NCBI GenBank assembly: GCA_016700135.1
Contig: CP065004.1
Location: 1,380,001 to 1,412,000, forward strand
Direction of reading: 5' to 3'
Length of the DNA stretch: 32,000 nt
From: Candidatus Saccharimonadota bacterium
GTDB lineage: Bacteria > Patescibacteriota > Microgenomatia > UBA1406 > GWC2-37-13
The notes below the pieces were generated by a model. It was given only the letters and a program-made list of their open reading frames with translations. It was not told the origin of the DNA and did not search any database. Made by a program: the position numbers and the translations under genes. Of this stretch, positions 3,876 through 20,161 are shown piece by piece. The stretch's first letter is position 1. The number at the start of each line of letters is the position of its first letter.

Positions 3876-3910
3876 CGAATCTTTTGAAAAATAAAATATT
3901 GAACAAAATC

Positions 3911-5665: not shown

Positions 5666-5692
5666 TTATTGTTTTAAAATTCTAATTAGCAA

Positions 5693-5784
5693 GAGCGCAG
5701 TAACCAAAATTTGCGCTGAGGTGGATGTTCGATCCGCCAGCTGGCGGAGAGTTCACCTCTAGCAAATTTTCGGTTACAAGCGAA
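5693..5784. repeat. Intercistronic nested-palindrome element, copy A (92 nt)
   Basis: GAGCGCAGTAACCAAAATTTGCGCTGAGGTGGATGTTCGATCCGCCAGCTGGCGGAGAGTTCACCTCTAGCAAATTTTCGGTTACAAGCGAA. It differs from copy B at 4 positions and lies between the ilvA stop and the ilvD start. Confidence 0.9.
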
Positions 5785-5797
5785 ACTTTATTAAAAA

Positions 5798-7042
5798 CTA
5801 TACAAGATACTCATACAGCATATCCTGTTCAGTCAGCTTCCGGTACTTCAATTCGATCGCATCCATCCGTTCCATCAATGGTTTCAAATCAGATTTATCT
5901 TTTAATTCAATCCCGACAAGTGCCGGAGCCTTTTCCTTATTCGTCTTCTTGATATACTCGAATCGGACAATATCGTCATTGGGACCGAGTGACTCATCAA
6001 GCATCCGTTTCAGCTGACCCGGCTTCTGAGCAAACTCGACAATAAAATAATGCTTTCTTCCCTGATACACCAGACTTTTTTCCATAATTTCCGGATAGCG
6101 CAAAATGTCGTTATTTCCTCCGCTCAACACACACACAACCGTTTTCCCTGCGATCTTTTCCGCAAGATAATCAAGTGCAGAGATTGAAAGCGCTCCTGCC
6201 GGCTCCGAGACAATCCCTTCATTCTGATACAGCTCAATCATTGTCGTACAGTCCTTTCCTTCGGGAACAAGCACGATATCATCAACATATTTTTTTGCGA
6301 TTTCAAAAGTAAGATTTCCGACCGTCCTCACAGCCGCTCCGTCTACAAACGTATCGATCGTATCAAGGGTCACAATCGTATTCTGCTTCATGGATTCAAA
6401 CATCCCGGGTGCACCTTCAGGTTCGACACCGACAATCCGGATATGTTGATTTTTCCCTTTCAAAAACGTCGAAACACCTGATATGAGTCCGCCGCCCCCG
6501 ATAGCGCAAAGCACGAAATCCACTTTTCCTTTGAGTTCTTCAAACAATTCTTTTCCCACCGTACCCTGACCTGCAATTGTCATCGGGTCGTTGAAAGGAT
6601 GGACATATGCAGCATTATTCTCTTTGGCAAATACCTGAGACGCAATACTTGCATCATCAAAAGTGGTCCCGACCAATTTGATATCGACATACCCGTCCCC
6701 GAATTGCTGGACTTTCTCAATTTTCTGATTCGGTGTGACGATCGGCATAAAAATGGTACCGTGCACCTTCAACGCATTACAACTATAAGCAACGCCCTGT
6801 GCATGATTTCCGGCACTGGCACAGACTACACCGTTTTCACGCTGTTTTGCAGTCATCGAAGCCATTTTATTATAAGCCCCCCGTATCTTAAAAGACCGAA
6901 CCTCCTGCAAATCTTCCCGCTTTATGTAGACGTTAGCTTTGTACTTCTTTGATAAGCGGGCTGAGTACTGCAAAGGCGTTTTCTGAGCAATCCCTTTCAG
7001 CCTCTTTGCCGCTTCTTCAATTTCTTTTATCGTGATTTTCAT
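5798..7042 (-). CDS. ilvA: Threonine ammonia-lyase (biosynthetic threonine dehydratase, short form)
   Basis: PLP-lysine motif SFKIRGAY, glycine loop GGGGLISG, and a C-terminal ACT-like regulatory domain. Start chosen at MKITIKEIEEA (7042), because the longer track ORF runs into repeat copy B. Confidence 0.92.
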   Translation of the reverse strand: MKITIKEIEEAAKRLKGIAQKTPLQYSARLSKKYKANVYIKREDLQEVRSFKIRGAYNKMASMTAKQRENGVVCASAGNHAQGVAYSCNALKVHGTIFMPIVTPNQKIEKVQQFGDGYVDIKLVGTTFDDASIASQVFAKENNAAYVHPFNDPMTIAGQGTVGKELFEELKGKVDFVLCAIGGGGLISGVSTFLKGKNQHIRIVGVEPEGAPGMFESMKQNTIVTLDTIDTFVDGAAVRTVGNLTFEIAKKYVDDIVLVPEGKDCTTMIELYQNEGIVSEPAGALSISALDYLAEKIAGKTVVCVLSGGNNDILRYPEIMEKSLVYQGRKHYFIVEFAQKPGQLKRMLDESLGPNDDIVRFEYIKKTNKEKAPALVGIELKDKSDLKPLMERMDAIELKYRKLTEQDMLYEYLV

Positions 7043-7060
7043 AATACTTTTTGGTGCAAT

Positions 7061-7152
7061 GAGCGCAGTAATCAAAATTTGTGCAGAGGTGGATGTTCGA
7101 TCCGCCAGCTGGCGGAGAGTTCACCTCTAACAAATTTTCGGTTACAAGCGAA
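7061..7152. repeat. Intercistronic nested-palindrome element, copy B (92 nt)
   Basis: GAGCGCAGTAATCAAAATTTGTGCAGAGGTGGATGTTCGATCCGCCAGCTGGCGGAGAGTTCACCTCTAACAAATTTTCGGTTACAAGCGAA, between the leuA stop and the ilvA start. Confidence 0.9.
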
Positions 7153-7171
7153 TCATAACCCACAAACAACT

Positions 7172-8683
7172 TTAAATTAATTTATTTAACCCATCAACAT
7201 ACGCCTGTACAGCAGCAACAACAATATCTGTATCAGAGCCGAACCCGTAATGCATCTTCTTCCCGTATTCAAGCTGTACGTTCACACGGCTAATATCATC
7301 CGACCCTTTTGTTACAGCCTGAATCAAAAATTCTTTCAAAACCGGAATTTTTTTCATTAGATCAGAATCTTTTATAATCTGATTGACGCAGTTGTATGAC
7401 GCATCCACCGGACCGTTCCCTGTCTTAGAGGCAATAAATTCATTGCCATTGATTTTCAATTTGACCGATGCCATCGGTTTCAACGGATACCCGCATACCA
7501 CCTCAACAAGATCAATTTGTATTTTCCTCTGTACGTCCCCCGCCCGACCCATCAGCATCTGCAGGTCTTCATCATTGACCTCTTTCTTGCTGTCGGCAAG
7601 CTCCAGAAACTTCGGATACAATGCATCCAATTGCTCCTTATTCAACGTAAATCCCAGCTCCTGCAAACGATGATTCAATGCAGCCCGACCCGATCTTGCT
7701 CCCAAAACAATCTGAGTTTGCTCCAATCCGACATCAGTCGGCTGCATAATCTCAAATGCCTGTTTGTTTTTGAGCATCCCGTCCTGATGAATACCCGAAG
7801 CATGAGCAAATGCATTTGCACCGACAATAGCTTTGTTTGCTTGAACCGGCATCTTCATCAGTCTTGAAACCAAACGGCTTGTCGGATATATCTTTTTGGT
7901 ATTGATGCCCATATCAAAATCCAATCCGTGATTCGTTTTGATTGCCATAATGACCTCCTCGAGCGCAGTGTTCCCCGCCCGTTCTCCGACACCGTTTATA
8001 GTCCCTTCCACCTGTCGAGCACCGTTCACGACGCCTGCCAAAGCGTTCGCAGTCGCCAGACCCAGATCATTGTGACAGTGCACGGCAATCGTGACTTTAT
8101 CAATATTTTTCACATTATCAACCAGATATTTGATCTTCTCCCCGAACTCCCAGGGCATACAATAGCCTGTCGTATCTGGAATATTGATGACGGTCGCCCC
8201 GGCTTCAATAACCTTCTCAACAAAATGTGCCAAAAACTCATTTTCAGTACGTCCTGCATCCATCGGTGAAAACTGCACATCCTCAACATATTTTTTAGCG
8301 TGTTTCACGGCATCGATGGCACGCTGCAGGATTTCTTCCCTTGTCGATTTGAAAACGTATTTAATGTGAATGTCTGAGCTTGAAATAAACGTATGAATCC
8401 GTTTTCGTTTTGCATACTTCAGAGATTCTGCGGCGCAATCAATATCTCCCTTAATCGCACGCGCCAAAGGAGAAATGACCGGTTTAGAAATTGCTTTTGT
8501 GATCTCTACAACCGAATCAAAATCACCTTTTGATGAAATCGGAAAACCCGGTTCAACAACATCGACACCCAATGATTCAAGAGCTTTTGCAACCTCAATT
8601 TTCTCAACAGTGTTCAATTGACACCCCGGAGCCTGTTCACCGTCTCTCAGAGTAGTATCAAAGATATATACTTTGTTTTTCAT
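7172..8683 (-). CDS. leuA: 2-isopropylmalate synthase
   Basis: Motifs FDTTLRDGEQ and HCHNDLGLATANALAG, plus a C-terminal LeuA-type regulatory domain. Start taken at MKNKVYIFDTT (8683), because the track ORF extension translates repeat copy C. Confidence 0.9.
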   Translation of the reverse strand: MKNKVYIFDTTLRDGEQAPGCQLNTVEKIEVAKALESLGVDVVEPGFPISSKGDFDSVVEITKAISKPVISPLARAIKGDIDCAAESLKYAKRKRIHTFISSSDIHIKYVFKSTREEILQRAIDAVKHAKKYVEDVQFSPMDAGRTENEFLAHFVEKVIEAGATVINIPDTTGYCMPWEFGEKIKYLVDNVKNIDKVTIAVHCHNDLGLATANALAGVVNGARQVEGTINGVGERAGNTALEEVIMAIKTNHGLDFDMGINTKKIYPTSRLVSRLMKMPVQANKAIVGANAFAHASGIHQDGMLKNKQAFEIMQPTDVGLEQTQIVLGARSGRAALNHRLQELGFTLNKEQLDALYPKFLELADSKKEVNDEDLQMLMGRAGDVQRKIQIDLVEVVCGYPLKPMASVKLKINGNEFIASKTGNGPVDASYNCVNQIIKDSDLMKKIPVLKEFLIQAVTKGSDDISRVNVQLEYGKKMHYGFGSDTDIVVAAVQAYVDGLNKLI

Positions 8684-8706
8684 ATGTAATGTATGTAATT
8701 TAAATT

Positions 8707-8798
8707 GAGCGCAGTAATCAAAATTTGTGCAGAGGTGGATGTTCGATCCGCCAGCTGGCGGAGAGTTCACCTCTAACAAATTTTCGGTTACTAGCGAA
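8707..8798. repeat. Intercistronic nested-palindrome element, copy C (92 nt)
   Basis: Identical to copy B except for one base (TACTAG versus TACAAG). It lies between ilvN and leuA. Confidence 0.9.
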
Positions 8799-8818
8799 AT
8801 ATTTATAATAAATCTTGG

Positions 8819-8857
8819 ATCCCGGATCGGGGTCCGGGATGACAGCATTCGGCTGTC
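8819..8857 (-). other. Two tandem stem-loops immediately after or overlapping the ilvN stop codon
   Basis: ATCCCGGA-tcgggg-TCCGGGAT (8-bp stem, 8819-8840), then GACAGC-attcg-GCTGTC (6-bp stem, 8841-8857). There is no clear U-tract on the minus strand. Confidence 0.5.
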
Positions 8858-9335
8858 ACTTAAATACTGCAATCCTTCCCGACCTCACAATCTCCTTAAT
8901 GCCAAACGGTTGCAGCAACTCGTCCAGTTTATCGATTTCCTTCTCGTCACCCGTAATCTCAGCTACTAAATAATTCTTATCAATGTGAATTATTCTTCCT
9001 TTTGACAATCGTACCAGTTGTTCGATTTCTTCACGCTTTTCTTTTGTCTTTGCCGTCACCTTGATAAGGGCAATTTCACGCGGCACCAGCTCATCGTCAG
9101 TACTCTCAATGACTTTTGTCATCTCAATGATCCGATACAATTGCTTTCCGATCTTTTCAACAAGATCACGTTCCGCATCGACCACAATCGTAAATCGGGA
9201 CATTCCTTTATGTTCAATCTCCGAAACCGTCAGACTCTCAATATTTATTTTGCGGCGAAGCAGCAAATCAGCAATCCGATACAGGACGCCCGGTTTGTTT
9301 TCTGCTATTGCCGTTATGGTATACCGTTGTTTCAT
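8856..9335 (-). CDS. ilvN: Acetolactate synthase small (regulatory) subunit
   Basis: 159 aa with an N-terminal ACT domain (ENKPGVLYRIADLLLRRKINIESLTV). It sits 9 nt downstream of ilvB. Confidence 0.9.
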   Translation of the reverse strand: MKQRYTITAIAENKPGVLYRIADLLLRRKINIESLTVSEIEHKGMSRFTIVVDAERDLVEKIGKQLYRIIEMTKVIESTDDELVPREIALIKVTAKTKEKREEIEQLVRLSKGRIIHIDKNYLVAEITGDEKEIDKLDELLQPFGIKEIVRSGRIAVFK

Positions 9336-9344
9336 ATGATGTAA

Positions 9345-11036
9345 TTATGCGAGACGTACCTCGTCAACTGATGAACCGGTCGGGATCATGGGAAATACAT
9401 TTTCTTCCTGCTCGACTTTTATCTCAAGTACATACGGACCATTGTGATCAAGCATCTTTTGCAATGCCTTTTTCAGATCAATTCTTGCCACAACACGGTC
9501 TGCTTCCAAACCGCACCCTTTTGCTACTGTCACAAAATCAGGACTCTGAATATTCACCATCGAATACCGCTTTTCAAAGAAAAGCTGCTGCCATTGTCGT
9601 ACCATTCCCAGAAAGCCGTTATTAAGAATAATCACTTTCACTGGAAGCTGCTCCTGAGCCAGAGTAGTAAACTCCTGTATATTCATCTGGATACCCCCGT
9701 CACCTGAAATTGAAATAACTTCCTGATCGGGACGGGCAAATTTTGCACCCATTGCAGCAGGAAGGCCGAATCCCATTGTTCCCATCCCGCCTGAGGAAAT
9801 CCAGCTATTCGGACGGGAAAACCGGTAATATCTTGCCGTAACCATCTGATGTTGTCCGACATCAGACACGACAACGGCTTCTCCTTTTGTCAGTTCAGAC
9901 AGCAGCGTCACTGCTTCTGCCATTGTTATTTCCCCGGTTTTCGGATGTGTGACTCCGTCAATTACTTGTTTCTTTTCTACTTCATAGAGTTTCTTAAATT
10001 CACGTATCCAATTTGTATGAGTGTTTTTACGGATTGCTTTTGTCAGTGATTGCAAAGCAATTTTGGCGTCAGCCACAATCGGCACATCAGCAGGTACATT
10101 TTTATTGAGCTCCGCCGGATCAATATCAATATGAATGACGGTTGCATCATTCAAATAATCGGAAAGCCTGCCTGTCACCCGGTCGTCAAACCGCATTCCG
10201 ATTGCCAAAACAGCATCGGCTTTGTTTGAGAGCATATTCGGAGCATAGTTGCCGTGCATCCCCAAGAAACCGACATGAAGAGGATGTCCTGAATGAAGTG
10301 CGGAAAGACCGTGCAGCGTGAAAGCTGCCGGAAAATCTCCTTTTTCCAGAAACGCTTGAAGTTCTTTTTGAGCTTTGGCAATCTGTACGCCTTGACCTAC
10401 TAATATCAAAGGACGTTCTGCATTGTTTAAATAACGTGCTGCTATCTCTATCTGTCTCTGATGAGGTTCGGTTGTCGGCTGATAACTCTGTAACGAAATG
10501 TCTTCGGGATACGAAAAATCCATCATCTCAAATTGCGCATCTTTGGTGATGTCAATAAGTACCGGTCCGGGTCTGCCGGTACGGGCAATATGAAAAGCCT
10601 TTGCCATCACTTCCGGTATTTCACTTGCTTTTGTGATCTGATAGTTCCATTTGGTGACCGGTGCAGTTATGCCTATCACATCCGCTTCCTGAAATGCATC
10701 GGTACCGATCACTCCGCTGTGTACCTGTCCGGAAATACATACCATCGGGACACTGTCCATCATCGCATCAGCAATAGCCGTCACTAAATTGGTCGCTCCC
10801 GGTCCTGATGTCACGAGACAAACACCCGGATTACCTGTCATCCGGCCGTAGCCTTCGGCAGCATGTCCCGCTCCCTGTTCATGACGGACAAGCACATGCT
10901 TGATCCTTCCGTCATTTGTATAATCATACAGAGCATCGTAAACAGGCATGATAGCCCCTCCGGGATATCCGAATATTACTTCCACATTTTCTTGGAGTAA
11001 CGATTCAAGAACTGCTTGTGAACCTGATATTTTCAT
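9345..11036 (-). CDS. ilvB: Acetolactate synthase large subunit
   Basis: ThDP-enzyme motifs GGMGTMGFGLPAAMGA and GDGGIQMNIQE. Start taken at MKISGSQAVLESL (11036), 2 nt after the ilvE stop. The track start at 11063 would overlap ilvE. Confidence 0.92.
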   Translation of the reverse strand: MKISGSQAVLESLLQENVEVIFGYPGGAIMPVYDALYDYTNDGRIKHVLVRHEQGAGHAAEGYGRMTGNPGVCLVTSGPGATNLVTAIADAMMDSVPMVCISGQVHSGVIGTDAFQEADVIGITAPVTKWNYQITKASEIPEVMAKAFHIARTGRPGPVLIDITKDAQFEMMDFSYPEDISLQSYQPTTEPHQRQIEIAARYLNNAERPLILVGQGVQIAKAQKELQAFLEKGDFPAAFTLHGLSALHSGHPLHVGFLGMHGNYAPNMLSNKADAVLAIGMRFDDRVTGRLSDYLNDATVIHIDIDPAELNKNVPADVPIVADAKIALQSLTKAIRKNTHTNWIREFKKLYEVEKKQVIDGVTHPKTGEITMAEAVTLLSELTKGEAVVVSDVGQHQMVTARYYRFSRPNSWISSGGMGTMGFGLPAAMGAKFARPDQEVISISGDGGIQMNIQEFTTLAQEQLPVKVIILNNGFLGMVRQWQQLFFEKRYSMVNIQSPDFVTVAKGCGLEADRVVARIDLKKALQKMLDHNGPYVLEIKVEQEENVFPMIPTGSSVDEVRLA

Positions 11037-11038
11037 AA

Positions 11039-11977
11039 TTACACTTTGATTTTGGTACACCAACTTTCATATTTTTTCTCGTTGCCGCGTACGACTCTGA
11101 AAAAGAGGTCTTGGAGCGTCCCGGAAACCGTTCCTCTTTTTCCGTTGCCGATCCGTCTTTTATCGATATGCGAAATCCATGCTATTTGAGCGCCCGTCCC
11201 ACAGAAGAATGCTTCATCCGCAACATACAGTTCACTGCGGTCAATCGTACGTTCTTCCACCGGGATACCCTGATCTTTCGCAAGCTGAAGCACTGATCTT
11301 CTCGTGATTCCCTCTAAAATATCATCACTTTTCGGCGGAGTGATCAGTACTCCGTCACGCACCATGCAGAAATTCATGGCTGATCCTTCTGCGACATGCC
11401 CCGATTCATTCAGAAATATCGCTTCGTCATAACCGTTCAAGGTTGCTTCATGTTTTGCCATTGCTGAGTTGATGTATCCGCCGGCTATTTTGGCTCGTGA
11501 AGGGATGGCATTGTCAGAAATCCGTCTCCAGGAAGATACACAAACGCTGATTCCTTTATCAGTCGGCAAATAATCACCCAACGGAATCATATACAAAGCA
11601 AAACTGAACTCATGATCACGATCGAGATTGGGTGATAAATTCGTGCTTCCGGCATAGGCAAATGGGCGGAAGTAGGTATCGGACTGCGGATTATTTTTTT
11701 CGGTAAGATCGGTCGTAATCTTCACAAGTTCCTCTCTGTTGTACTGAAGATCGACTCCGATGATTTTGAGAGAATTAAGAAATCGCTTGTAGTGATCGTC
11801 AATTCTGAAAAGAGAAATAAATCCTTTTTCCTTGTTGTAATAACCCCGTATTCCACCGAAAACAGCTGTCCCGTACTGCAGAGCATTCGTCATAACTGAT
11901 ACTTTTGCATCTTCCGTTTTGACGACTTTGCCCTCAAAAAATGCATAAGGATGTGAGGTAGTTTGAAGATGGGACAT
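11039..11977 (-). CDS. ilvE: Branched-chain amino acid aminotransferase (fold type IV)
   Basis: BCAT-like N-terminus (FFEGKVV...YGTAVFGGIRGY) and GITR motif. Start at MSHLQTT (11977), because the longer track ORF runs through the attenuator terminator. Confidence 0.9.
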   Translation of the reverse strand: MSHLQTTSHPYAFFEGKVVKTEDAKVSVMTNALQYGTAVFGGIRGYYNKEKGFISLFRIDDHYKRFLNSLKIIGVDLQYNREELVKITTDLTEKNNPQSDTYFRPFAYAGSTNLSPNLDRDHEFSFALYMIPLGDYLPTDKGISVCVSSWRRISDNAIPSRAKIAGGYINSAMAKHEATLNGYDEAIFLNESGHVAEGSAMNFCMVRDGVLITPPKSDDILEGITRRSVLQLAKDQGIPVEERTIDRSELYVADEAFFCGTGAQIAWISHIDKRRIGNGKRGTVSGTLQDLFFRVVRGNEKKYESWCTKIKV

Positions 11978-12041
11978 ATATTTGGAAAAAAAATAATAAT
12001 TTCCTTTGGGCTCATTTTTACTTACATAAGCTTTCAAGGCT

Positions 12042-12068
12042 AAAAAAAAACCCGCCTGTCTGGCGGGT
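12042..12068 (-). terminator. Intrinsic terminator of the ilv leader (attenuator)
   Basis: Minus strand: ACCCGCC-agaca-GGCGGGT followed by a run of T residues. It lies about 65 nt upstream of the ilvE ATG and 30 nt downstream of the leader-peptide stop. Confidence 0.8.
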
Positions 12069-12097
12069 GCAAATGTCATTCGAATGCCCTCCCGCCG

Positions 12098-12148
12098 TTA
12101 GCGGTTAATAAGGAGGACAATAAGTGCAAATGACATCGGATTTTTCAT
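12098..12148 (-). CDS. ilv operon leader peptide, 16 aa: MKNPMSFALIVLLINR
   Basis: ATG AAA AAT CCG ATG TCA TTT GCA CTT ATT GTC CTC CTT ATT AAC CGC TAA. Six of seven consecutive codons are Leu/Ile/Val. It sits between the predicted promoter and the terminator, and alternative pairings are available. Confidence 0.7.
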   Translation of the reverse strand: MKNPMSFALIVLLINR

Positions 12149-12160
12149 ACGATAAAAAGT

Positions 12161-12189
12161 ATTATAGAAAACAAATCTTCATAATGCAA
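12161..12189 (-). promoter_or_regulatory. Sigma70-like promoter of the ilv/leu operon
   Basis: Minus strand: TTGCAT (12189-12184), 17-nt spacer, TATAAT (12166-12161). The -35 box begins 9 nt after the aroC stop codon. Confidence 0.6.
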
Positions 12190-12198
12190 ACACAAGCA

Positions 12199-13308
12199 TC
12201 ACACTTCTCCGAATCGTTCCAGAATATTTTGTGCGAGGACATACGCAAGCATCGCTTCAGAAACAACTCCAGCACGTGGTACCACACAGATATCAGACCG
12301 TTCGACGGTCGCTTTTACCTGTTCTTTTGTCGAGATATCGACGGTATTCATCGGCTTGTAAAGTGTTGATATCGGTTTATGATAGACGCGGGCGACAACG
12401 GGCATCCCGTTCGTGACTCCGCCTTCAACGCCTCCCGCACGATTTGTTTTTCGGTAATAACCTTCCTCTTTATTGTGAAAGATCTCATCATGTACATCTG
12501 ATCCAAATGATCCCGAAGCAGAGATACCTGATCCTATCTCAACCGCTTTTACTGACTGAATACTCATCAGTGCCTGAGCAATCTGTCCGTCAATTTTTCT
12601 GTCCCAATGCACATAACTTCCAAGACCCGGAGGAATATTGTTTGCCCATACCTCAACGACACCTCCAAGAGTATTCATTTCCTTGCGTGCTTTTTCAATC
12701 AGTTTTTTCATTCGTTGGGATGTTTTCGGGTCAACACACCGTATCTCGGGATCCTTTTCATACGTTTTTTGAATATCTTCAAAAGTGTATTCTGTGTCAA
12801 TGGAAATATCGCCGATCTGGACGGTATGGCTTGCAATCTCTATTCCGTCTCTCATAAGCAGTTGTTTAAAAACGGCACCGGCAGCAACCCTTGCCGTCGT
12901 CTCGCGGGCAGATGCCCTTTCTAAAACATTTCTGACATCATCAAATCCGTATTTCTGGACGCCCGGAAGGTCGACATGCCCGGGACGCGGCTCAGTCACT
13001 CGGGCCGATGCAACAACTTCTTCAGGCTGCTCTTTGATACTCATCTTGTCACCCCAGTTTTTGAAATCTTTATTCCATATAATCATGGAAATCGGGCTGG
13101 CAATCGTCTTGCCGAAACGAATACCCGACAAGATCTCAACCTCATCTTTTTCAATCAGCATCCGTCCTCCTGATCCTGCTCCTTTCTGCCTTTTTGCAAG
13201 TTCCTGGTTGATGTAGTCAACCGAAATCGGAACACCGGCAGGCATCCCTTCAATAATAACCGTTAATCCTTTGCCGTGCGACTCGCCGGCTGTTAAAAAT
13301 CTAAGCAT
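12199..13308 (-). CDS. aroC: Chorismate synthase
   Basis: 369 aa with the N-terminal signature MLRFLTAGESHG and chorismate synthase similarity throughout. Confidence 0.95.
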   Translation of the reverse strand: MLRFLTAGESHGKGLTVIIEGMPAGVPISVDYINQELAKRQKGAGSGGRMLIEKDEVEILSGIRFGKTIASPISMIIWNKDFKNWGDKMSIKEQPEEVVASARVTEPRPGHVDLPGVQKYGFDDVRNVLERASARETTARVAAGAVFKQLLMRDGIEIASHTVQIGDISIDTEYTFEDIQKTYEKDPEIRCVDPKTSQRMKKLIEKARKEMNTLGGVVEVWANNIPPGLGSYVHWDRKIDGQIAQALMSIQSVKAVEIGSGISASGSFGSDVHDEIFHNKEEGYYRKTNRAGGVEGGVTNGMPVVARVYHKPISTLYKPMNTVDISTKEQVKATVERSDICVVPRAGVVSEAMLAYVLAQNILERFGEV

Positions 13309-13318
13309 TTTATATTAC

Positions 13319-13412
13319 TGAACGAAGTAACCAAAATTTGTGAATGAAGTGGATGTTTGAGCGGACAAGCTTAGGGCGAGTTCACTTCTGAACAAATTTT
13401 CGGTTACGAGTG
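13319..13412. repeat. Intercistronic nested-palindrome element, diverged copy D (~94 nt)
   Basis: GAACGAAGTAACCAAAATTTGTGAATGAAGTGGATGTTTGAGCGGACAAGCTTAGGGCGAGTTCACTTCTGAACAAATTTTCGGTTACGAGTGA. The arms are conserved and the inner stem is changed compensatorily (GAAGTG/CACTTC versus GAGGTG/CACCTC). Confidence 0.8.
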
Positions 13413-13433
13413 ATTTAAAAAATAGTAATAAAT

Positions 13434-14102
13434 TTATATCAACAAACTTTTATACACCTTCTTCATCTCCCCAATCTCTATCTGCCCCGGCGCACTCTCA
13501 CACCACGGAGTAGATGCAAATGTCAGAAAACCCCCGAGAAGCGGAGCAAGAATCCGGGTGATACGTCCCTTCTCTCCCATCCCTATCACAATTCTGTTTT
13601 CCGTATGCGGTTTATTCGTAAGCAACCGATACAACTTTGTGACTTCATACTCTTTCTGTACCATAGTGGCTATTTTCAGGACATCCGGTTTGAACTTACT
13701 CATCTCAAAAATCACCTTTTGCATATCCCAATAACTTGGCGTTTCAACAAAATTGTGATATGACAAAATAACTTTAGTACCGTCTTCGCAGCTGAAATCA
13801 TGTTTTTTGACCGTCGATAATTCAATATCAACATATTCAAAAAGTCCGATCCCGCGCTGAAGAATTTTGACCCGTTGATTTTCCGGATCCTCGAAACTTC
13901 CGCCTTCCTCTTTTGATCTGCAGGTAAAAATCGCTTCTTTCTTCGTCTGATCTTTGATAGTTCGGATATGATCCATAGACAACCCTCGGATCGAATCAAC
14001 ACGAAGTTCAATACAGTCAGAAATGTCCTGTGTTTTTGCAAGATTACTCAAAAATTCATCTATGGTGCCTCCTGTGACCGGAGTGCAGATTTTGATATCC
14101 AT
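13434..14102 (-). CDS. aroD: 3-dehydroquinate dehydratase, type I
   Basis: 222 aa with type I DHQase features (ELRVD, SYHNF, and the Schiff-base lysine context KIATM). Confidence 0.88.
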   Translation of the reverse strand: MDIKICTPVTGGTIDEFLSNLAKTQDISDCIELRVDSIRGLSMDHIRTIKDQTKKEAIFTCRSKEEGGSFEDPENQRVKILQRGIGLFEYVDIELSTVKKHDFSCEDGTKVILSYHNFVETPSYWDMQKVIFEMSKFKPDVLKIATMVQKEYEVTKLYRLLTNKPHTENRIVIGMGEKGRITRILAPLLGGFLTFASTPWCESAPGQIEIGEMKKVYKSLLI

Positions 14103-14105
14103 ACC

Positions 14106-14933
14106 TTATTGTAAAACCTTTCTCATAACTTCAATCGGTGCTTTTCTCCCCGTGTACAACTCAAACTGAGCAGTGCCCTGATGAAGGAGCATTTCAACTC
14201 CCTGTACCGTAACCGCACCCTGCTCTTTTGCCTCCTTCAACAATCTCGTTTCCCGAGGCTTGTATACTGCATCGAAGACAATGTGACCTTTTCTCAAATA
14301 TTCTTTCTGCAAGGGTGTTTGATCAATCTGTTCACCCATCCCGAGACTTGTTGCATTGAGAATAATCTCATGTTTCGGTATTTCACGCGACATATCATCA
14401 TATGTAAAAACGGATACATCAGAATCGAGCTCCTTTGCAAGTATCTGAGCTTTTTTTTGGTTTCTGTTAAAAACTGAAAGTTTCGCCCCTTTCTCAAGAA
14501 CTCCGTACGCCATAGCCCGGGCCGCACCTCCCGCCCCTACTAATGCAACGGATGTGCCACGAAGATCTCCGGCATGATTCTCAAGCGGTATGACCGTACC
14601 GAGCCAGTCGGTATTGTATCCTTTCAGTACTCCTTTATCGTTTACAACCGTATTCACGGCTCCGATTTTTTCAGCAATCGGATCAATTTCATCAAGATAC
14701 TTCATCACTTCCATTTTGTGAGGGATCGTACAAGTCAATACCCGGATATTCATGACACGAACTGCCTGCACGACATCCTTCACGTCTTCAAGATTCACAC
14801 GGGCAGCGACAAACACAAATTCATCGTCAATACCGAGCGCTTCATATGCTGCATTGTGCATTGCAGGCGATAAGGAATGCTCGACAGGATCGCCGATAAT
14901 GACACATATTTTTGTTTTTCCTGATATGTTCAT
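14106..14933 (-). CDS. aroE: Shikimate 5-dehydrogenase
   Basis: Motifs GDPVEHSLSPAMHN and GAGGAARA. Its start overlaps the upstream DUF1653 gene stop (ATGA). Confidence 0.93.
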   Translation of the reverse strand: MNISGKTKICVIIGDPVEHSLSPAMHNAAYEALGIDDEFVFVAARVNLEDVKDVVQAVRVMNIRVLTCTIPHKMEVMKYLDEIDPIAEKIGAVNTVVNDKGVLKGYNTDWLGTVIPLENHAGDLRGTSVALVGAGGAARAMAYGVLEKGAKLSVFNRNQKKAQILAKELDSDVSVFTYDDMSREIPKHEIILNATSLGMGEQIDQTPLQKEYLRKGHIVFDAVYKPRETRLLKEAKEQGAVTVQGVEMLLHQGTAQFELYTGRKAPIEVMRKVLQ

Positions 14934-15145
14934 TCTTCTCTTATAAACTCAAAACGAGGGGCCTTTTTCCCGTTGATTGAAACCGTTTCCGTAAACATTG
15001 AAAGCGGTCTGATCCAAAATGCCGAGTCGGATTTATATAATGGTTCATATATGACATAGTCTTCCAGAGTTTCTGAGTGGCGGGCAACTCCGTGTACACG
15101 ATACTCCTTCCCTTTGTAATGCCGATAAATTCCTTTTTTTATCAT
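14930..15145 (-). CDS. Small DUF1653-like protein (71 aa) embedded in the shikimate operon
   Basis: GIYRHYKGKEYRVHGVARHSETLEDYVIYEPLY...WIRPLSMFTE...RFEFI matches my recollection of the DUF1653 pattern. It starts 1 nt after the aroK stop and overlaps the aroE start. Confidence 0.65.
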   Translation of the reverse strand: MIKKGIYRHYKGKEYRVHGVARHSETLEDYVIYEPLYKSDSAFWIRPLSMFTETVSINGKKAPRFEFIREE

Positions 15146-15146
15146 A

Positions 15147-15725
15147 TTATAATGCCCGAATGTTCATAATCTGTTCTACAACCTCTTTCAGCAGACTCTT
15201 ATCCTTCAGATCGGCCGGCTCATTTTTATACAGTTTTAAGACAATCTCCTTTGCGATTTTCACCGCATCTTTACCTTTTGTACGAATGGTCATATCCGCG
15301 TATTTTTTGTAAAGCGGTAATCGAAAATGATACAACCGATATGCATCCCTCACATTCCCAAACAAAGGCCGCGGCGTTTTGTCTTTGATAACACGCTGTT
15401 CCAGTGTCTGAAACGACGCATGCAAAAATATTACATGACCGTTATTCTTTTTTAAATATTCCGGAATAATGTTGTTCATAACTACACCGCCACCTGTTGA
15501 TATGACAGTTTTTTCTTTCTCCTGCCATTCTTTTGCAAGTGCAATTTCCCATTCTCTGAGATATATTTCTCCGTTCTTTGAAAACAGCTCCTGCATGTCC
15601 CTAAAATTCGTTTTTTCTAAAACTACTTTGTCCATCTCAACAAATTCGAATCCGAGCATGTTTGCCAATGCTTCTCCAACGGTGGTTTTCCCCGATCCCA
15701 TAAATCCGATCAGTGCTATTTTCAT
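15147..15725 (-). CDS. aroK: Shikimate kinase
   Basis: P-loop GFMGSGKTTVG and shikimate-binding region ISTGGGVV. 192 aa. Confidence 0.9.
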   Translation of the reverse strand: MKIALIGFMGSGKTTVGEALANMLGFEFVEMDKVVLEKTNFRDMQELFSKNGEIYLREWEIALAKEWQEKEKTVISTGGGVVMNNIIPEYLKKNNGHVIFLHASFQTLEQRVIKDKTPRPLFGNVRDAYRLYHFRLPLYKKYADMTIRTKGKDAVKIAKEIVLKLYKNEPADLKDKSLLKEVVEQIMNIRAL

Positions 15726-15746
15726 AGGTTTTGATTAATTACTAAT

Positions 15747-15835
15747 GACCGCAAAATAATCAAAATTTGTCTTATCATAACTGCCATCCATTATAGATCT
15801 GGCTTTATGAAAAGCAAATTTTCGGTTACAAGCGC
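15747..15835. repeat. Intercistronic element, copy E (arms conserved, different core)
   Basis: GACCGCAAAATAATCAAAATTTG ... CAAATTTTCGGTTACAAGCGC. The core is replaced by CTTATCATAA...TTATGAAAAG and GCCA...TGGC stems. The 3' arm overlaps the last codons and the stop of aroA. Confidence 0.65.
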
Positions 15836-17109
15836 TTTTGATATTCCAATCCAATTGCTCTCAATTTCTCCCAATACTCAGGAAACGTTTTTTTCACAAC
15901 TTCAGGATCGTTAATCTTCATCCCTTCAATTTTTGCTCCCGCCATCGCAAAACTCATCGCCATACGGTGATCGTGATAGGTGTCAATAACCGCCGCATGA
16001 GGTTTTCCTCCGAACACGTGCAAAGAATCTTCATCAGGTGACTCCGTGCGTATACCCATTTTAGCAAGTTCCTGTTGTACCGCCTTAACCCGTTCCGTTT
16101 CCTTCACCCTGAGGGAACGTACTCCCGTCATTTTTGTCACTCCTTCAGCAAACGCCGCAAGAACCGCAAGAGTCTGCGCCTGATCGGGACAGCTTTCCAT
16201 ATCAACTTCGAGTGCCCGGACACCGGTCCCTTTTATCGTTATCCTATCCTCGTCGTACACAACTTCATTTCCCATTTTTTGAATAATTTCCAGAAATTTT
16301 TTATCACCCTGTGTAGAATCCTGACGTAGATTCTTCAATGTGATTGTCATGCCCGTAAGAGCCGCAATACCCGCAAAATAACCCGCCGCAGAGTAATCTC
16401 CTTCAACGATATATTCACTCATTCTGTACGATCCGGCAGGAACTTCATACCATTTATAATCATTGTTCTGAACGGAAACTCCCCATTCCCGCATCATCTC
16501 GAGTGTGATATCTATATATGATTTTGAGATCTGGTTTCCCTCAACTTCGATTGTCATACCGCCGATTACGGGAGCTATCAAAAGTAACGCTGTAAAATAT
16601 TGACTGCTCACATCCCCATGCATTCGAACGAATCTTTTAGTGACCGTTGACTGATGAACGGCAATAGGAGGAAACCCATCCTGATTTTCGTATACTATCT
16701 CGATCCCCATCTGACGCAATCCGTCAACCAGATCTTTTATCGGGCGCTCATTCAGACGACCGATTCCGAAAATCTTTTTTACACCCGGGACAATCGCTGC
16801 CAGTGCGGTTATAAATCTTATAGTTGTTCCTGACAATCTCGCATTCAGTTCATATCCGCTTTTCTTTACATCAGCAATACTTCCGCGGACAATGACCTCA
16901 TGATCACGCTTTTCTATCTTGATGCCAAGCGTTTGCAGACACTCAATCATTGCTTCAGTATCATCACTCCACAACGGATATTTGATCGTCACCGCGCCCC
17001 GCGTCAATGCCGCCATAACGAGTGCCCGATTGGTCACACTTTTTGATCCCGGTATGACAACGGTTGCCTCCACCGGTTTTTGAATTGGTTTTAATTGTAT
17101 TTGTTTCAT
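15826..17109 (-). CDS. aroA: 3-phosphoshikimate 1-carboxyvinyltransferase (EPSP synthase)
   Basis: 427 aa with the N-terminal motif PGSKSVTNRAL and EPSPS similarity throughout. Confidence 0.95.
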   Translation of the reverse strand: MKQIQLKPIQKPVEATVVIPGSKSVTNRALVMAALTRGAVTIKYPLWSDDTEAMIECLQTLGIKIEKRDHEVIVRGSIADVKKSGYELNARLSGTTIRFITALAAIVPGVKKIFGIGRLNERPIKDLVDGLRQMGIEIVYENQDGFPPIAVHQSTVTKRFVRMHGDVSSQYFTALLLIAPVIGGMTIEVEGNQISKSYIDITLEMMREWGVSVQNNDYKWYEVPAGSYRMSEYIVEGDYSAAGYFAGIAALTGMTITLKNLRQDSTQGDKKFLEIIQKMGNEVVYDEDRITIKGTGVRALEVDMESCPDQAQTLAVLAAFAEGVTKMTGVRSLRVKETERVKAVQQELAKMGIRTESPDEDSLHVFGGKPHAAVIDTYHDHRMAMSFAMAGAKIEGMKINDPEVVKKTFPEYWEKLRAIGLEYQKRL

Positions 17110-17132
17110 ATGGAAATGAATAACAGTATGAA

Positions 17133-17219
17133 AATTTTTGAGAGTTATCTTTGAGCCGATCAGATCGAGATCTTGTTGATATATGCCTACTCCATAGGCG
17201 AACTAGCTCGCAAAAAATT
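17133..17219. other. ~87-nt structured intercistronic element (G) between aroB and aroA
   Basis: The outer arms AATTTTTGAGAG and CTCGCAAAAAATT can pair. They enclose two hairpins: ATCAGATC-GA-GATCTTGTTGAT and GCCTA-ctcca-TAGGC. The arms weakly resemble those of copies A-E. Confidence 0.35.
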
Positions 17220-17247
17220 ACATAGTATTCGACAAATATCAAATAAT

Positions 17248-18336
17248 CTAACCCACAATATACTCAATTGCCTTTTTCACAAACTTATCATCAACACTCA
17301 CATTAAATTCGCCCTGCCCGATCCCGCTGAGGAGCGTCCACTTGATATGCCCCTTTTCAACTTTTTTGTCCGTTAACATTGCTCTCAACACATCATCTAC
17401 GACCAGACCTTCATATCTTACCGGCAACCCTACGCGCTTTATCCCGCTTTCAATTTTGTTAAACTCTTTTTCTGTAATCATCCCGATAAGCTGGCAAATG
17501 TAACTCTCAGCTATCATGCCAATTGAAACAGCCTCACCATGAAATAACGGATTTTGTGACTTCATACTATGTGACTCAATGACATGCCCGACCGTATGGC
17601 CGAAGTTCAGCAGTTTTCGTAATCTGTGCTCTGTCTCATCCTGACGGACTATCTCTGACTTAATATGGACAGACTCTGCAACAATATCTATTAATTCCTT
17701 ATCAGTCATCTCAAGAGGACTTTTCTTAACCGCTTCTTCAAAGTAGTTACTATCCTCGATAAGTCCATGCTTAATTACTTCTGCATACCCCTGAATCAAC
17801 ACGCGGTGAGGCAGTGTTTTTAACGTTTCAACGTCACAGACAACAAGTTCAGGCTGCGTGAATGAACCAATGTAATTTTTTAACGTACCAAGATTCACAC
17901 CTGTTTTTCCGCCGACACTGGCATCAACCATTCCTTCCAAAGTCGTTGAAATATTTATAAACGATACGCCGCGCAAATAACCTGAAGCTGCATAGCCTCC
18001 CAGATCAGTAACCACACCACCGCCAAGATTGACAATCAATGCTTTCCTGTCAATCATATTCTTTGCCATATCTTTCCATATTTCAACTACCGTCCCGATT
18101 TGCTTGCTGGATTCTCCGGCTGGAAACACAAATGAATACATATTTGCAATCCGTTGAGAAAAGATTTTAATAACAGGCTTCAGATAATGTCTTGAAACAT
18201 TTGAGTCAGTAATAATATATATTGATGAATACCCTGCTAGATCAATCAAATCGGGGATCAGTTCAATAATATTCTCACCGACACATACTTGATATTTCCG
18301 TGCTTGTTTTTGTATACCAACTTCAATTGTTTTCAT
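17248..18336 (-). CDS. aroB: 3-dehydroquinate synthase
   Basis: 362 aa with GGGVVTDLGGYAA and metal-binding LNFGHTVGHVIE motifs. Confidence 0.95.
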   Translation of the reverse strand: MKTIEVGIQKQARKYQVCVGENIIELIPDLIDLAGYSSIYIITDSNVSRHYLKPVIKIFSQRIANMYSFVFPAGESSKQIGTVVEIWKDMAKNMIDRKALIVNLGGGVVTDLGGYAASGYLRGVSFINISTTLEGMVDASVGGKTGVNLGTLKNYIGSFTQPELVVCDVETLKTLPHRVLIQGYAEVIKHGLIEDSNYFEEAVKKSPLEMTDKELIDIVAESVHIKSEIVRQDETEHRLRKLLNFGHTVGHVIESHSMKSQNPLFHGEAVSIGMIAESYICQLIGMITEKEFNKIESGIKRVGLPVRYEGLVVDDVLRAMLTDKKVEKGHIKWTLLSGIGQGEFNVSVDDKFVKKAIEYIVG

Positions 18337-18365
18337 GGTTTGTATTCAACTATTAATCTTAGTAT

Positions 18366-19184
18366 TTATTCCGAATATGTCTGACCTTTTTCATATATCC
18401 CGACCATTCTGTATGAAAGCGTTTCCTTTTCCAATAACACTTTGAACGTTTCTGCTGATCCCTCAGGGATCTCCACATCAATCCAAAAAAGATATTCCCA
18501 GTTCGAACCGGGAACGGGACGGGATTCGATTTTGGACATATTACCTTTGGCATCTGCTATCGCCTGCAGTACCTTGACCAGGCTTCCCGGTTCATGCTTT
18601 ACCTTGAAAATAACCGTAATTTTATTCTGTATCTTACCGAGGCTAAAAAGGCTATTTGATACAAATACCCATCGGGTCATATTGTGTGAGGTATTTCCAA
18701 TATTTTCCTTAATAATTCGGAGATTTGTATCGGCAAGTGAGCCTCGACCTGCTATTGCGGCTTTTGTATTATCCTGCAGTGTATCCACTTCCCGTACTGC
18801 AGATGCGGTACTCGGTGTCTCATGGGTTATAAGACCGTGTTTTTCGATAAATGAAGAACATTGTACAATCGCCTGAGGATAAGAAAATATCTCTCTGACA
18901 TCTGTAATATCCGAATCGCTGGTCCCAATGAGATGGAGCTGGATATCCATACATGCTTCACCGACAATGTAAAGATCAGTATGAAAGACGAGATCTATAT
19001 TCTCATGAACGGAACTGCTTATGGAATTTTCTATACCCAGAAGTCCCATACTCTTTTTGTCGTTCATAACAGCATCAGAAATGTGGACAAAGGTGGGCAT
19101 CGGTATCAGCTCATCATCGGGACAGACTTTTTGCAAAAGCGCATAACTGTATGATCCTTTCGGACCTAAATAATATATTTTCAT
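18366..19184 (-). CDS. pheA: Prephenate dehydratase (PDT plus ACT domain)
   Basis: 272 aa with a PDT domain and a C-terminal ACT domain carrying the ESRP motif (SKIESRPVPG). Its start overlaps the tyrA stop. Confidence 0.9.
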   Translation of the reverse strand: MKIYYLGPKGSYSYALLQKVCPDDELIPMPTFVHISDAVMNDKKSMGLLGIENSISSSVHENIDLVFHTDLYIVGEACMDIQLHLIGTSDSDITDVREIFSYPQAIVQCSSFIEKHGLITHETPSTASAVREVDTLQDNTKAAIAGRGSLADTNLRIIKENIGNTSHNMTRWVFVSNSLFSLGKIQNKITVIFKVKHEPGSLVKVLQAIADAKGNMSKIESRPVPGSNWEYLFWIDVEIPEGSAETFKVLLEKETLSYRMVGIYEKGQTYSE

Positions 19185-19894
19185 GACTGTTGTAATAATA
19201 AACTAATTGACTGATATGCTGAATTAATTTTTTCAAACTGCTTTTTGCAAAAAGGATTAAAGGTATACATTTCCTTTAATAGTTTTGTATCGTCGGTCTG
19301 TACCATTTCGACAAAATCAAAGAGTGATTCGACTGATCGTGTGTCAATCGGGCTTCTTGATAGTTTGATTTCTTTAACTAAAGCCGCAATGACATGTGCG
19401 GTAAAATGAAATTCTGCTGCATACCCGTCATGTTCTTCGGCAGACATTTCGATAATATCAAGACCTGTCTTTCGGAAAGAGTCATAAACTTCAGAGTAAA
19501 TATGACCTTTCACTCGAACCTTTTCCATCACGATCCGTAATCCGTTTAGATTGTTCCCGAGTTTTGCAACTGTACCCGGACCGAACATCGGATGTGAAGC
19601 AACAATTTGAATATGAGGCGGCAATTCACTCTTCATGATTGAAACCGGATAAGATTTAACGGAACAAACATCCATTACAGTCGCCCCTTCCTTCAGCAAC
19701 GGTGCAATAGTCCCGATAACTTCCGCAAAATGATTTATTGGAACTGCAGGAATAACCAAATCACATTGATGAACATCGGATATAGTATCTCTTGCAATAG
19801 AAATTATCTCAGCTTGCGGAAACACAGAAGGGAGTATCTCCAGAAGGAGAGTCCCGAATTTTCCTTGACCGATGATACCGACGTTTCGAATCAT
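19181..19894 (-). CDS. tyrA: Prephenate/arogenate dehydrogenase (short form)
   Basis: N-terminal dinucleotide fold IIGQGKFG and catalytic-region motif SHPMFGPG. Only 237 aa. Confidence 0.85.
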   Translation of the reverse strand: MIRNVGIIGQGKFGTLLLEILPSVFPQAEIISIARDTISDVHQCDLVIPAVPINHFAEVIGTIAPLLKEGATVMDVCSVKSYPVSIMKSELPPHIQIVASHPMFGPGTVAKLGNNLNGLRIVMEKVRVKGHIYSEVYDSFRKTGLDIIEMSAEEHDGYAAEFHFTAHVIAALVKEIKLSRSPIDTRSVESLFDFVEMVQTDDTKLLKEMYTFNPFCKKQFEKINSAYQSISLLLQQS

Positions 19895-20157
19895 TATTTC
19901 GATCGTTCAACTTCCAATGCCCAATTATGAAGGACGTCCCATATGGATAAGACTACGGACTCCGGGATAAATAGTTCCACCGCTATCTCTTTTCTCTTTT
20001 CAATCATCTCCCCGAAACGGGTTTCATCTTTGATGGGAAGACTACTGACCTTTTTACGTTCACCAATTGCTTCCACAACATCCCGTCTCTTTGAGAGCAG
20101 GATCAGGATGTCATGATCAATCTCATCGATTTTTTTCCGTAAATCATTAATTTCCAT
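19894..20157 (-). CDS. aroQ: Chorismate mutase, AroQ class (monofunctional, 87 aa)
   Basis: LRKKIDEIDHDILILLSKRRDVV is a typical AroQ helix-1 pattern. TAATG overlap with tyrA. Confidence 0.85.
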   Translation of the reverse strand: MEINDLRKKIDEIDHDILILLSKRRDVVEAIGERKKVSSLPIKDETRFGEMIEKRKEIAVELFIPESVVLSIWDVLHNWALEVERSK

Positions 20158-20161
20158 TTGA

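Follow-up and report, generated by a model that had tools for sequence, protein, structure and literature searches.

A putative leader-peptide attenuator upstream of the ilv-leu operon of Microgenomates bacteria and a related candidate upstream of the aro operon

The stretch of DNA considered here, hereafter the window, comprises 32,000 nucleotides (nt) of contig CP065004.1 (positions 1,380,001 to 1,412,000; assembly GCA_016700135.1). All genes of the window are located on the minus strand. Two adjacent operons at 271..21199 encode a complete pathway that makes branched-chain amino acids (BCAAs; 10 genes) and a seemingly complete pathway for the synthesis of aromatic amino acids. The upstream aro operon consists of a gene resembling 3-deoxy-d-arabino-heptulosonate 7-phosphate (DAHP) synthase genes, followed by a chorismate mutase gene, tyrA, pheA, aroB, aroA, aroK, aroE, aroD and aroC. 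The downstream operon extends to position 271 and contains the genes ilvE, ilvB, ilvN, leuA, ilvA, ilvD, ridA, ilvC, leuC and leuD, which were identified by NCBIfam equivalogs. Except for ridA, this mixed ilv/leu gene content had already been described in an earlier note on this DNA. The same note had interpreted the region between aroC and ilvE, at 12042..12189 of the minus strand, as an attenuator with a short leader open reading frame (ORF). This ilv-leu leader element is the subject of the present analysis.

All parts of the element that had been listed in the earlier note are present in the sequence (Table 1). The promoter TTGCAT-17 nt-TATAAT was recognised by a promoter scan, which independently gives the equivalent TTTGCA-18 nt-TATAAT. 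The promoter precedes a 16-codon ORF (ATG AAA AAT CCG ATG TCA TTT GCA CTT ATT GTC CTC CTT ATT AAC CGC TAA), in which codons 9-14 specify Leu-Ile-Val-Leu-Leu-Ile. The stop codon is located in the loop of a small hairpin, and the adjacent GGCGGG is complementary to the CCCGCC of the 5' arm of the terminator ACCCGCC-agaca-GGCGGGU. The latter has a 7-bp stem with six GC pairs followed by U9, and it was also found by an independent terminator scan. The 8-bp long-range pairing of the 1:2 type between AUGUCAUU and AAUGACAU exists as well and can be extended to 11 bp (GAUGUCAUUUG with CGAAUGACAUU). Moreover, the predicted folds contain an inner 9-bp helix of UGUCCUCCU with GGGAGGGCA, which the earlier note had not seen. 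Since UGUCCUCCU spans the last base of an Ile codon, the Val codon, a Leu codon and the first two positions of the Leu codon that follows, the main anti-antiterminator contact is, according to these folds, the pairing of the Val-Leu-Leu codons with GGGAGGGCA. Segment 2 of the leader harbours both the 5' arm of the antiterminator (GGCGGG) and the 3' arm of the inner 1:2 helix (GGGAGGGCA). The whole element of about 107 nt is A+T-rich, and the regulatory codons are located about 65 nt from segment 4. A codon usage count revealed that these codons are ordinary and not rare (CUU, 28% of Leu; AUU, 48% of Ile; GUC, 26% of Val), and Leu, Ile and Val together make up 22.6% of the codons in the window genes, as compared to six consecutive codons in the leader. 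Thus, the sensitivity of the system would derive from the codon run and not from codon rarity.

Table 1 Coordinates of leader features in the window and leader peptides of the orthologous loci
Feature	Position	Strand	Remarks
ilv-leu leader: -35 hexamer TTGCAT	12184..12189	minus	From sequence; starts 9 nt past the aroC stop codon (TGA, 12201..12199)
ilv-leu leader: -10 hexamer TATAAT	12161..12166	minus	17-nt spacer from -35; ends 12 nt upstream of the leader ATG
ilv-leu leader: ORF, 16 codons + TAA, MKNPMSFALIVLLINR	12098..12148	minus	ATG 12148, TAA 12100..12098; no Shine-Dalgarno sequence
ilv-leu leader: segment 1 outer arm GAUGUCAUUUG, codons 4-8	12127..12137	minus	Pairs with 12072..12082; minimum free energy and centroid structures
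ilv-leu leader: regulatory codons 9-14, CUU AUU GUC CUC CUU AUU (Leu-Ile-Val-Leu-Leu-Ile)	12107..12124	minus	From sequence
ilv-leu leader: segment 1 inner arm UGUCCUCCU, codons 10-13	12111..12119	minus	Pairs with GGGAGGGCA, 12085..12093; predicted folds
ilv-leu leader: hairpin CCGC-uaacg-GCGG, stop codon in loop	12092..12104	minus	From sequence
ilv-leu leader: segment 2 GGCGGGAGGGCA	12085..12096	minus	Starts 1 nt after the leader stop codon; constrained folds
ilv-leu leader: GGCGGG within segment 2	12091..12096	minus	5' arm of the antiterminator
ilv-leu leader: GGGAGGGCA within segment 2	12085..12093	minus	3' arm of the inner 1:2 helix
ilv-leu leader: 3' arm of the outer 1:2 helix CGAAUGACAUU	12072..12082	minus	Predicted folds
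ilv-leu leader: segment 3 ACCCGCC	12062..12068	minus	5' arm of the terminator or 3' arm of the antiterminator; terminator scan and constrained folds
ilv-leu leader: terminator ACCCGCC-agaca-GGCGGGU	12050..12068	minus	Terminator scan
ilv-leu leader: segment 4 GGCGGGU and U9	12042..12056	minus	GGCGGGU 12050..12056, U9 12042..12050; terminator scan
ilvE, first structural gene, 312 amino acids	11039..11977	minus	Start ATG 11977; NCBIfam equivalog; most orthologues about 312 amino acids
aro leader, whole element	21207..21357	minus	
aro leader: -35 hexamer TTGACA	21352..21357	minus	
aro leader: -10 hexamer TACAAT	21330..21335	minus	
aro leader: ORF, Phe/Tyr-rich MIQKASHNSFYFYFYFTASGGVGSCA	21242..21322	minus	ATG 21322, 7 nt past -10; stop 21244..21242
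aro leader: terminator CCCCGCC-cgcaa-GGCGGGG	21207..21225	minus	Followed by U6
Leader peptide of L161			MKTFLSAEIIVLLINR
Leader peptide of L163			MINNISLILVLLINPA
Leader peptide of L165			MKNNSSLIYVLLINHA
Leader peptide of L166			MIKSLSLILVVLIILA
Leader peptide of L167			MKNLMSFVLIVLLINRA
Leader peptide of L004			MKRFFSLIVVFLIILA
Leader peptide of L007			MVCSTVINVVLSP
Leader peptide of L009			MTQNSFTIVLFYTR
Leader peptide of L072			MLNTASLIFVLIYPV
Leader peptide of L081			MNTNLLVLLVNVINQI
Leader peptide of L170			MNKNSLLLVVDLLILVEK

The earlier note had proposed a comparison with orthologous loci as a check. The surroundings of ilvE relatives from genomes, metagenomes and contigs encoding ten homologues were inspected, and the same architecture was found in 11 further sequence-distinct loci. 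The resulting 12 leader versions, including that of the window, are located upstream of ilvE-ilvB-ilvN, and their hosts are labelled Woesebacteria, Roizmanbacteria, Levybacteria or Patescibacteria. Near-duplicates were counted once: L005 is almost identical to the window, L082 is the same as L004, and L169 is the same as L072. The leader unit occurs wherever ilvE heads an ilvE-ilvB-ilvN(-leuA) operon with enough upstream DNA; L001 and L162, whose contigs include less than 160 nt upstream of ilvE, were left out of this call. The leader was not found in L006, where ilvE is internal and follows ilvA-ilvD-ridA, nor in L002, L003, L164 and L168, where ilvB does not follow ilvE. All 12 versions share a -10 box close to the leader ORF, an ORF of 13-18 codons, a stop codon directly before segment 2, and a terminator with compensatory changes. 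Furthermore, each of the orthologous leader runs contains codons for Leu, for Ile and for Val (Table 1), which suggests that the element responds to all three amino acids.

The conserved position of the leader also bears on a simpler explanation, according to which the hairpin and the U-run are only the intrinsic terminator of the upstream aro operon and the short ORF is a chance frame. Indeed, the terminator scan of the window detected no other terminator between aroC (end 12199) and the hairpin, the -35 box starts only 9 nt past the aroC stop codon, and Leu/Ile/Val-rich frames are not rare in T-rich DNA, with other frames of L005 reaching five out of six such codons. However, the gene upstream of the leader is aroC only in the window, L005, L163 and L167. 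The same unit of promoter, ORF and terminator is found after trpA in L166, next to a divergent aro operon in L009, and after unrelated genes elsewhere (for instance in L004, L007 and L165). Since the upstream neighbour varies, the leader unit belongs to the ilv operon and not to the preceding gene. Moreover, a near-consensus promoter precedes the leader ORF, whose stop codon is always located directly before segment 2. Strict leader-like ORFs, that is, ATG-initiated frames of 10-20 codons in which at least five of six consecutive codons specify Leu, Ile or Val and all three are represented, occur only 17 times in 160 kb of the relatives' genomes when both strands are considered (0.01 per 100 nt), a count that includes the true leaders. 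We consider it very unlikely that the element is merely a terminator of the aro operon. As no terminator separates the end of aroC from the ilv promoter in the window, the ilv leader hairpin probably also ends the aro transcripts.

The predicted secondary structure of the leader is more stable than expected by chance. The minimum free energy (MFE) of the window leader is -39.0 kcal/mol, as compared to -23.9 +/- 3.6 kcal/mol for dinucleotide shuffles (z = -4.2 to -4.4), and only one of 200 shuffles was at least as stable. The same two-hairpin shape, in which the ORF provides the 5' arm and the post-stop region the 3' arm of a hairpin with the stop codon near the apex, followed by the terminator, was predicted for 11 of the 12 leaders (z = -2.3 to -5.7); the z-score of the L072 leader is -1.85. 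In a MAFFT alignment, 87.9% of the cells of the terminator helix are paired, and compensatory changes are present at five of its seven pairs. In 500 column shuffles, the covariation score of this helix was never attained, and the pairing fell to 32-62% when the partner columns were shifted by 1-3 positions. MAFFT combined with RNAalifold on 13 leaders recovers the terminator alone, and the 1:2 and 2:3 helices are out of register and split by indels. Because the registers differ and indels separate the arms, no alignment-based covariation is claimed for these two helices. When the leaders are compared individually, segments 2 and 3 are found to change jointly, from GGCGGG:CCCGCC in the window to GGAGAUCU:GGAUCUCC in L081 and GGAGA:UCUCC in L170, and also to CGGGACGG:CCGCCCCG. 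In distant variants, the hairpin arms are wholly different, as exemplified by the outer helices GUUUUUUUUCAUUGA/UCAGUGAAAAAAAAC of L004 and CUCUCUUCUU/GGAGAAGAGA of L170. Between the window and L005 or L167, each substitution is either unpaired or preserves the pair (A-U to G-U).

These pairings help to judge whether the ORF might instead encode a functional small hydrophobic, possibly membrane-associated peptide, with the hairpin only ending its own small transcript. The peptide is hydrophobic, and its C-terminal S-L-I-x-V-L-L-I-N is kept in the closer relatives. However, the conserved codons are those that are paired with segment 2, so that the RNA structure accounts for their conservation; in 10 of the 12 variants, the post-stop segment is the pairing partner of the Leu/Ile/Val codons. 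The distant variants retain only the Leu/Ile/Val content (MVCSTVINVVLSP, MTQNSFTIVLFYTR), and 13-18 residues are too short to span a membrane. In addition, the element is tied to ilvE-ilvB-ilvN operons, and the aro operon is preceded by an analogous Phe/Tyr-rich peptide (see below). A functional peptide is thus an extremely improbable explanation.

The promoter region suggests how the leader ORF is translated. A promoter resembling those recognised by sigma-70, with the -35 box TTGCAA, TTGCAT, TTGACA, TTGTAT or TTGGCA, a spacer of 16-18 nt and the -10 box TATAAT, TATGAT or TATGGT, precedes 11 of the 12 leaders; in the twelfth, L170, the contig end cuts just upstream of its TATAAT. In all 12 variants, the end of the -10 box is only 5-13 nt away from the leader ATG. 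Transcription typically starts about 7 nt past the -10 box. The short gap therefore implies a 5' untranslated region (UTR) of 0 to about 6 nt, which leaves no room for a Shine-Dalgarno (SD) sequence. Hence, translation of the ilv leader peptide probably takes place on a leaderless or near-leaderless RNA, with the transcription start deduced from the promoter position. Most genes of the window also lack an SD-like motif at -15..-5, and the regions before the start codons are A+T-rich; rpsT (around 24237), which is preceded by AAAGGAGGTGAT, is a clear exception. This pattern suggests that translation initiation is mostly SD-independent in this organism. If so, the missing SD sequence is no argument against translation of the leader.

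A translation-independent RNA switch, such as a riboswitch, a T-box or a TRAP-like system that senses a ligand, an uncharged tRNA or a protein, would leave the ORF without any role. BCAA operons of other phyla are described as using T-boxes or ppGpp riboswitches (PMC10272879), and the conserved GCGGGAGG just past the stop codon might conceivably serve as a binding site. However, no Rfam family reached its gathering threshold in the window or in 13 orthologous loci, and no T-box or riboswitch matched the element at E<=10. T-box RNAs are characterised by a specifier loop, a conserved T-box sequence and a leader of about 200-300 nt; the element, at about 107 nt, is too small for this class and has almost no conserved unpaired nucleotides. 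Moreover, the conserved ATG after the -10 box, the frame of 13-18 codons, the Leu, Ile and Val codons and the fixed stop codon would have no role in such a switch, which we regard as an unlikely alternative. The Rfam leader families (Leu_leader, Phe_leader, His_leader, Thr_leader and Trp_leader) likewise gave no match at their gathering thresholds. At E<=10, the sole leader-family match of the window in the Rfam scan was Phe_leader (RF01859), with 22.7 bits as compared to a threshold of 55. The sub-threshold matches to GcvB, Phe_leader and assorted small RNAs are driven by the terminator and were rejected as family members.

Whether the position of a ribosome could decide between the alternative structures was addressed by folding. 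When the full-length leader with ribosome masks was folded at equilibrium, the outcome was uninformative, since the terminator prevailed in every case. Instead, a nascent RNA that stops short of segment 4 was folded for each sequence under three ribosome-mask conditions. To mimic a stalled ribosome, the nucleotides were covered up to 13 nt beyond the Leu, Ile or Val codon in the A site, and 13 nt from the first base of the stop codon were covered to mimic a ribosome that has reached the end of the ORF. With the ribosome stalled on the Leu/Ile/Val codons, at least 5 nt of segment 3 are predicted to pair with the post-stop segment in all 12 variants (-10.9 to -17.2 kcal/mol). With the ribosome at the stop codon, segment 2 is masked, the antiterminator is lost and the terminator arm is largely free. 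Without a ribosome, the 1:2 hairpin is favoured in 10 of the 12 variants and segment 3 is left free. In all variants, segment 2 starts 1-8 nt past the stop codon, and in ten variants this distance is only 1-2 nt. The energy difference between the stalled and the stop condition was matched by 0-2.7% of the shuffles of the region between stop codon and segment 3, with the dinucleotide content kept, in 11 of the 12 variants and by 8% in L007.

Thus, the attenuator interpretation of the earlier note is supported in every in silico test that was applied. As judged from the sequence, the element is very likely a ribosome-mediated (leader-peptide) transcription attenuator of the ilvE-ilvBN-leuA-ilvAD-ridA-ilvC-leuCD operon of Microgenomates, which belong to the candidate phyla radiation (CPR). 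In the proposed mechanism, transcription would start at or a few nucleotides before the leader AUG, and a ribosome would load on the leaderless or near-leaderless RNA and translate MKNPMSFALIVLLINR while the RNA polymerase synthesises roughly the following 60 nt. With an ample supply of charged Leu, Ile and Val tRNAs, translation would proceed to the UAA, where the ribosome would cover segment 2 (GGCGGGAGGGCA). After its release, the ORF would re-pair with segment 2 in the long 1:2 hairpin. Segment 3 (ACCCGCC) would be left free to pair with segment 4 (GGCGGGU), and termination at the U-run would yield a leader RNA of about 105 nt. If charging is low for even one of these tRNAs, the ribosome would stall on codons 9-13, thereby covering both 5' arms of the 1:2 hairpin and exposing segment 2. 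The exposed GGCGGG could then pair with CCCGCC ahead of the synthesis of segment 4, so that the terminator would be blocked and the polymerase would proceed into ilvE.

Several points weigh against this interpretation. The attenuator function in this clade is deduced from sequence features and predicted folds. Given the range of distances between the -10 box and the ATG (5-13 nt), a 5' UTR of a few nucleotides may be present in some leaders, which would then not be strictly leaderless. The full-length RNA at equilibrium always favours the terminator, so antitermination must be kinetic, as is normal for attenuators. For L072 and L081, the antiterminator instead of the 1:2 hairpin is predicted in the free nascent RNA. 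Moreover, with 6 bp in the window, the antiterminator is short, and in single variants it surpasses the shuffles only modestly, being matched by 0-8% of them and in L007 by 25%. Finally, the ilvB leader of Streptomyces coelicolor looks similar, and according to the account of its regulatory-codon mutation it did not act as a classical attenuator (PMC1262725), so that resemblance does not prove function.

The latter case provides the model for another explanation, in which a genuine leader ORF and genuine alternative structures would serve, for example, to tune translation or mRNA stability, or to sense a single amino acid. Besides the ilvB leader of S. coelicolor, where mutation of the regulatory codons is described as leaving regulation unchanged, the leuA leader of this organism may serve as a precedent (PMC1262725). 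In contrast to many actinobacterial cases, the leaders analysed here possess a canonical GC-rich hairpin followed by 7-9 U residues, and the predicted availability of the antiterminator depends on the ribosome position in all 12 variants. Furthermore, ilvE starts 64 nt past the U-run, and the predicted structures do not sequester its start. Such non-classical control is therefore regarded as unlikely, and transcription attenuation remains the preferred interpretation.

A second leader is located upstream of the aro operon of the window (Table 1). It has a promoter and a Phe/Tyr-rich ORF followed by a terminator, and an orthologue precedes the divergent aro operon of L009 (2796..2728, minus strand). 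The latter encodes MTSQKFYFYFYFTASSGGMSLG, has a TATAAT box 6 nt before its ATG, and ends with the terminator ACCCCGCC-gaaa-GGCGGGGU. From its sequence, the aro leader appears to be a second leaderless attenuator family of the same design in the same clade. The ATG of the first aro gene (21199), encoding the DAHP-synthase-like protein, is located only 1 nt past the U-run of the aro terminator (21199..21207, minus strand). Therefore, the terminator hairpin would adjoin the translation start in read-through transcripts.

The ilvE proteins that are most similar to that of the window and carry a name belong to Woesebacteria (86% and 77% identity), Roizmanbacteria (76, 72 and 70%), Levybacteria (71%) and the 'Patescibacteria group'. 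The assignment to the Microgenomates (CPR/Patescibacteria) rests on the record names given by the submitters. Third-party annotation (TPA) assemblies labelled 'uncultured Gammaproteobacteria' fall in the same ilvE cluster, and these labels are taken as unreliable placeholders. Homologous operons are present on contigs of up to 0.56 Mb, some of them of 0.35-0.56 Mb.

The leader is also of interest for the annotation of ilvE. The longest ilvE ORF of the window begins with the ATG at 12079 inside the attenuator and crosses the terminator (11978..12079, minus strand; P0001, P0037), which would result in a protein of 346 instead of 312 amino acids. Similar N-terminal over-extensions exist in public records (332 and 334 amino acids). 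Failure to recognise the leader probably gave rise to these annotation errors, which are corrected once it is taken into account. Other features were observed between the leader and ilvE. In L167, a conserved element of about 100 nt (GGAGnCUUGCUUUUGCnAAGCAAnAGCUUAGnCGACAUUAU..., two hairpins) is located between the ilv terminator and ilvE (1383..1500), and the same element is present upstream of ilvE in L001 (45..156); Rfam gave no match for it. L161, L162 and L072 have other hairpin-rich inserts at this position, and the window has none. The identity of L001 to the window is mosaic, with 74% for ilvE, 88% for ilvB, 96% for ilvN and 97% for leuA, a pattern that points to recombination in L001 or to replacement of the 5' end of its operon. 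Elsewhere in the window (26824..28719, minus strand), a protein of 631 amino acids with a DUF4012 domain is encoded beside sugar-transferase, nucleotidyl-transferase and glycosyltransferase genes, and these genes may form a cell-envelope cluster. Beyond this region, a PilO-like protein and a protein of 452 amino acids with purple-acid-phosphatase-N and immunoglobulin-like domains are encoded.

Leader-peptide attenuation itself is a textbook mechanism, and the value of the present finding lies in the host clade and in what it says about the physiology of the CPR. It extends leader-peptide attenuation to the CPR/Patescibacteria with an element that no Rfam family covers. A full-text literature search returned nothing on attenuation or leader peptides in CPR, Patescibacteria or Microgenomates, although its coverage was incomplete and the result is only weak evidence of novelty. 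Whether the ilv-leu and aro leaders are the first ribosome-mediated attenuators to be described in the CPR, forming a compact (about 107 nt), leaderless and SD-independent family, is in our view an evenly balanced question. If it is true, some Microgenomates make their own branched-chain and aromatic amino acids, sense tRNA charging and tightly couple transcription and translation. Leader-peptide attenuation works only if the first ribosome closely trails the RNA polymerase. For organisms that cannot be cultivated, conserved attenuators would thus be sequence-level evidence that transcription and translation are coupled and, in addition, that initiation is leaderless or SD-independent. Microgenomates are generally described as lacking amino acid biosynthesis and are usually seen as auxotrophic and symbiotic. 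The presence of regulated operons for the complete BCAA pathway and a seemingly complete aromatic pathway argues for prototrophy and for real starvation in these Microgenomates, which runs against the usual picture of CPR metabolism.

Among the known systems, the leaders of the E. coli ilvGMEDA (ilvL), ilvBN (ivbL) and leu (leuL) operons share the ribosome-mediated choice between terminator and antiterminator (PMC10272879, refs 15 and 17), and the ilvGMEDA leader also has mixed Leu, Ile and Val codons. The distance between the regulatory codons and segment 4 is similar to that in the E. coli trp/ilv paradigm. However, the E. coli ilv and leu leaders have 28-32 codons, SD sites and longer 5' UTRs, in contrast to the 16 codons, the missing SD sequence and the small size of the window element, which is not recognised by any Rfam leader model. 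Short BCAA-rich upstream ORFs (uORFs) followed by a terminator are likewise described ahead of the ilv-leu operons of Staphylococcus aureus, with a leucine-rich attenuator peptide (PMC5794164), and Listeria monocytogenes (PMC5864092); according to these reports, they act together with CodY and within longer leaders. The ilvB-II, ilvB-OMG and ilvB (Leptospira) motifs, as presented by Narunsky et al. (2023, PMC10272879), were found computationally upstream of ilvB and contain BCAA-rich uORFs, suggesting attenuation. In this account, ilvB-II is specific to Corynebacterium. The name ilvB-OMG was considered for the window element and set aside because of length, composition and the lack of an Rfam match: the two ilvB-OMG sequences that were compared are about 210 nt long, GC-rich and without obvious similarity to the window element, which is A+T-rich and located upstream of ilvE (PMC10272879).

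The closest studied analogue is the ilvBNC attenuator of Corynebacterium glutamicum. There is no sequence similarity between the two, and the leader region of C. glutamicum comprises 292 nt, as compared to about 170 nt from promoter to ilvE in the window. Moreover, the window operon starts with ilvE, additionally carries the leu genes, ilvA and ilvD, and belongs to a CPR bacterium and not to an actinobacterium. The ilvBNC leader is described as encoding a peptide of 15 amino acids, MTIIRLVVVTARRLP, with the transcription start 1 nt before the start codon and without a ribosome-binding site (PMC11857589), and its three-hairpin model was validated by mutation (Morbach 2000, as cited in PMC11857589; PMC10272879). 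Judging from these descriptions, both systems combine a short leader (15 versus 16 codons) that contains Ile, Val and Leu codons and lacks a ribosome-binding site with the logic of anti-antiterminator, antiterminator and terminator ahead of acetolactate synthase genes. In both, transcription would begin at or next to the leader start codon, which for the window leader is deduced from the promoter position.

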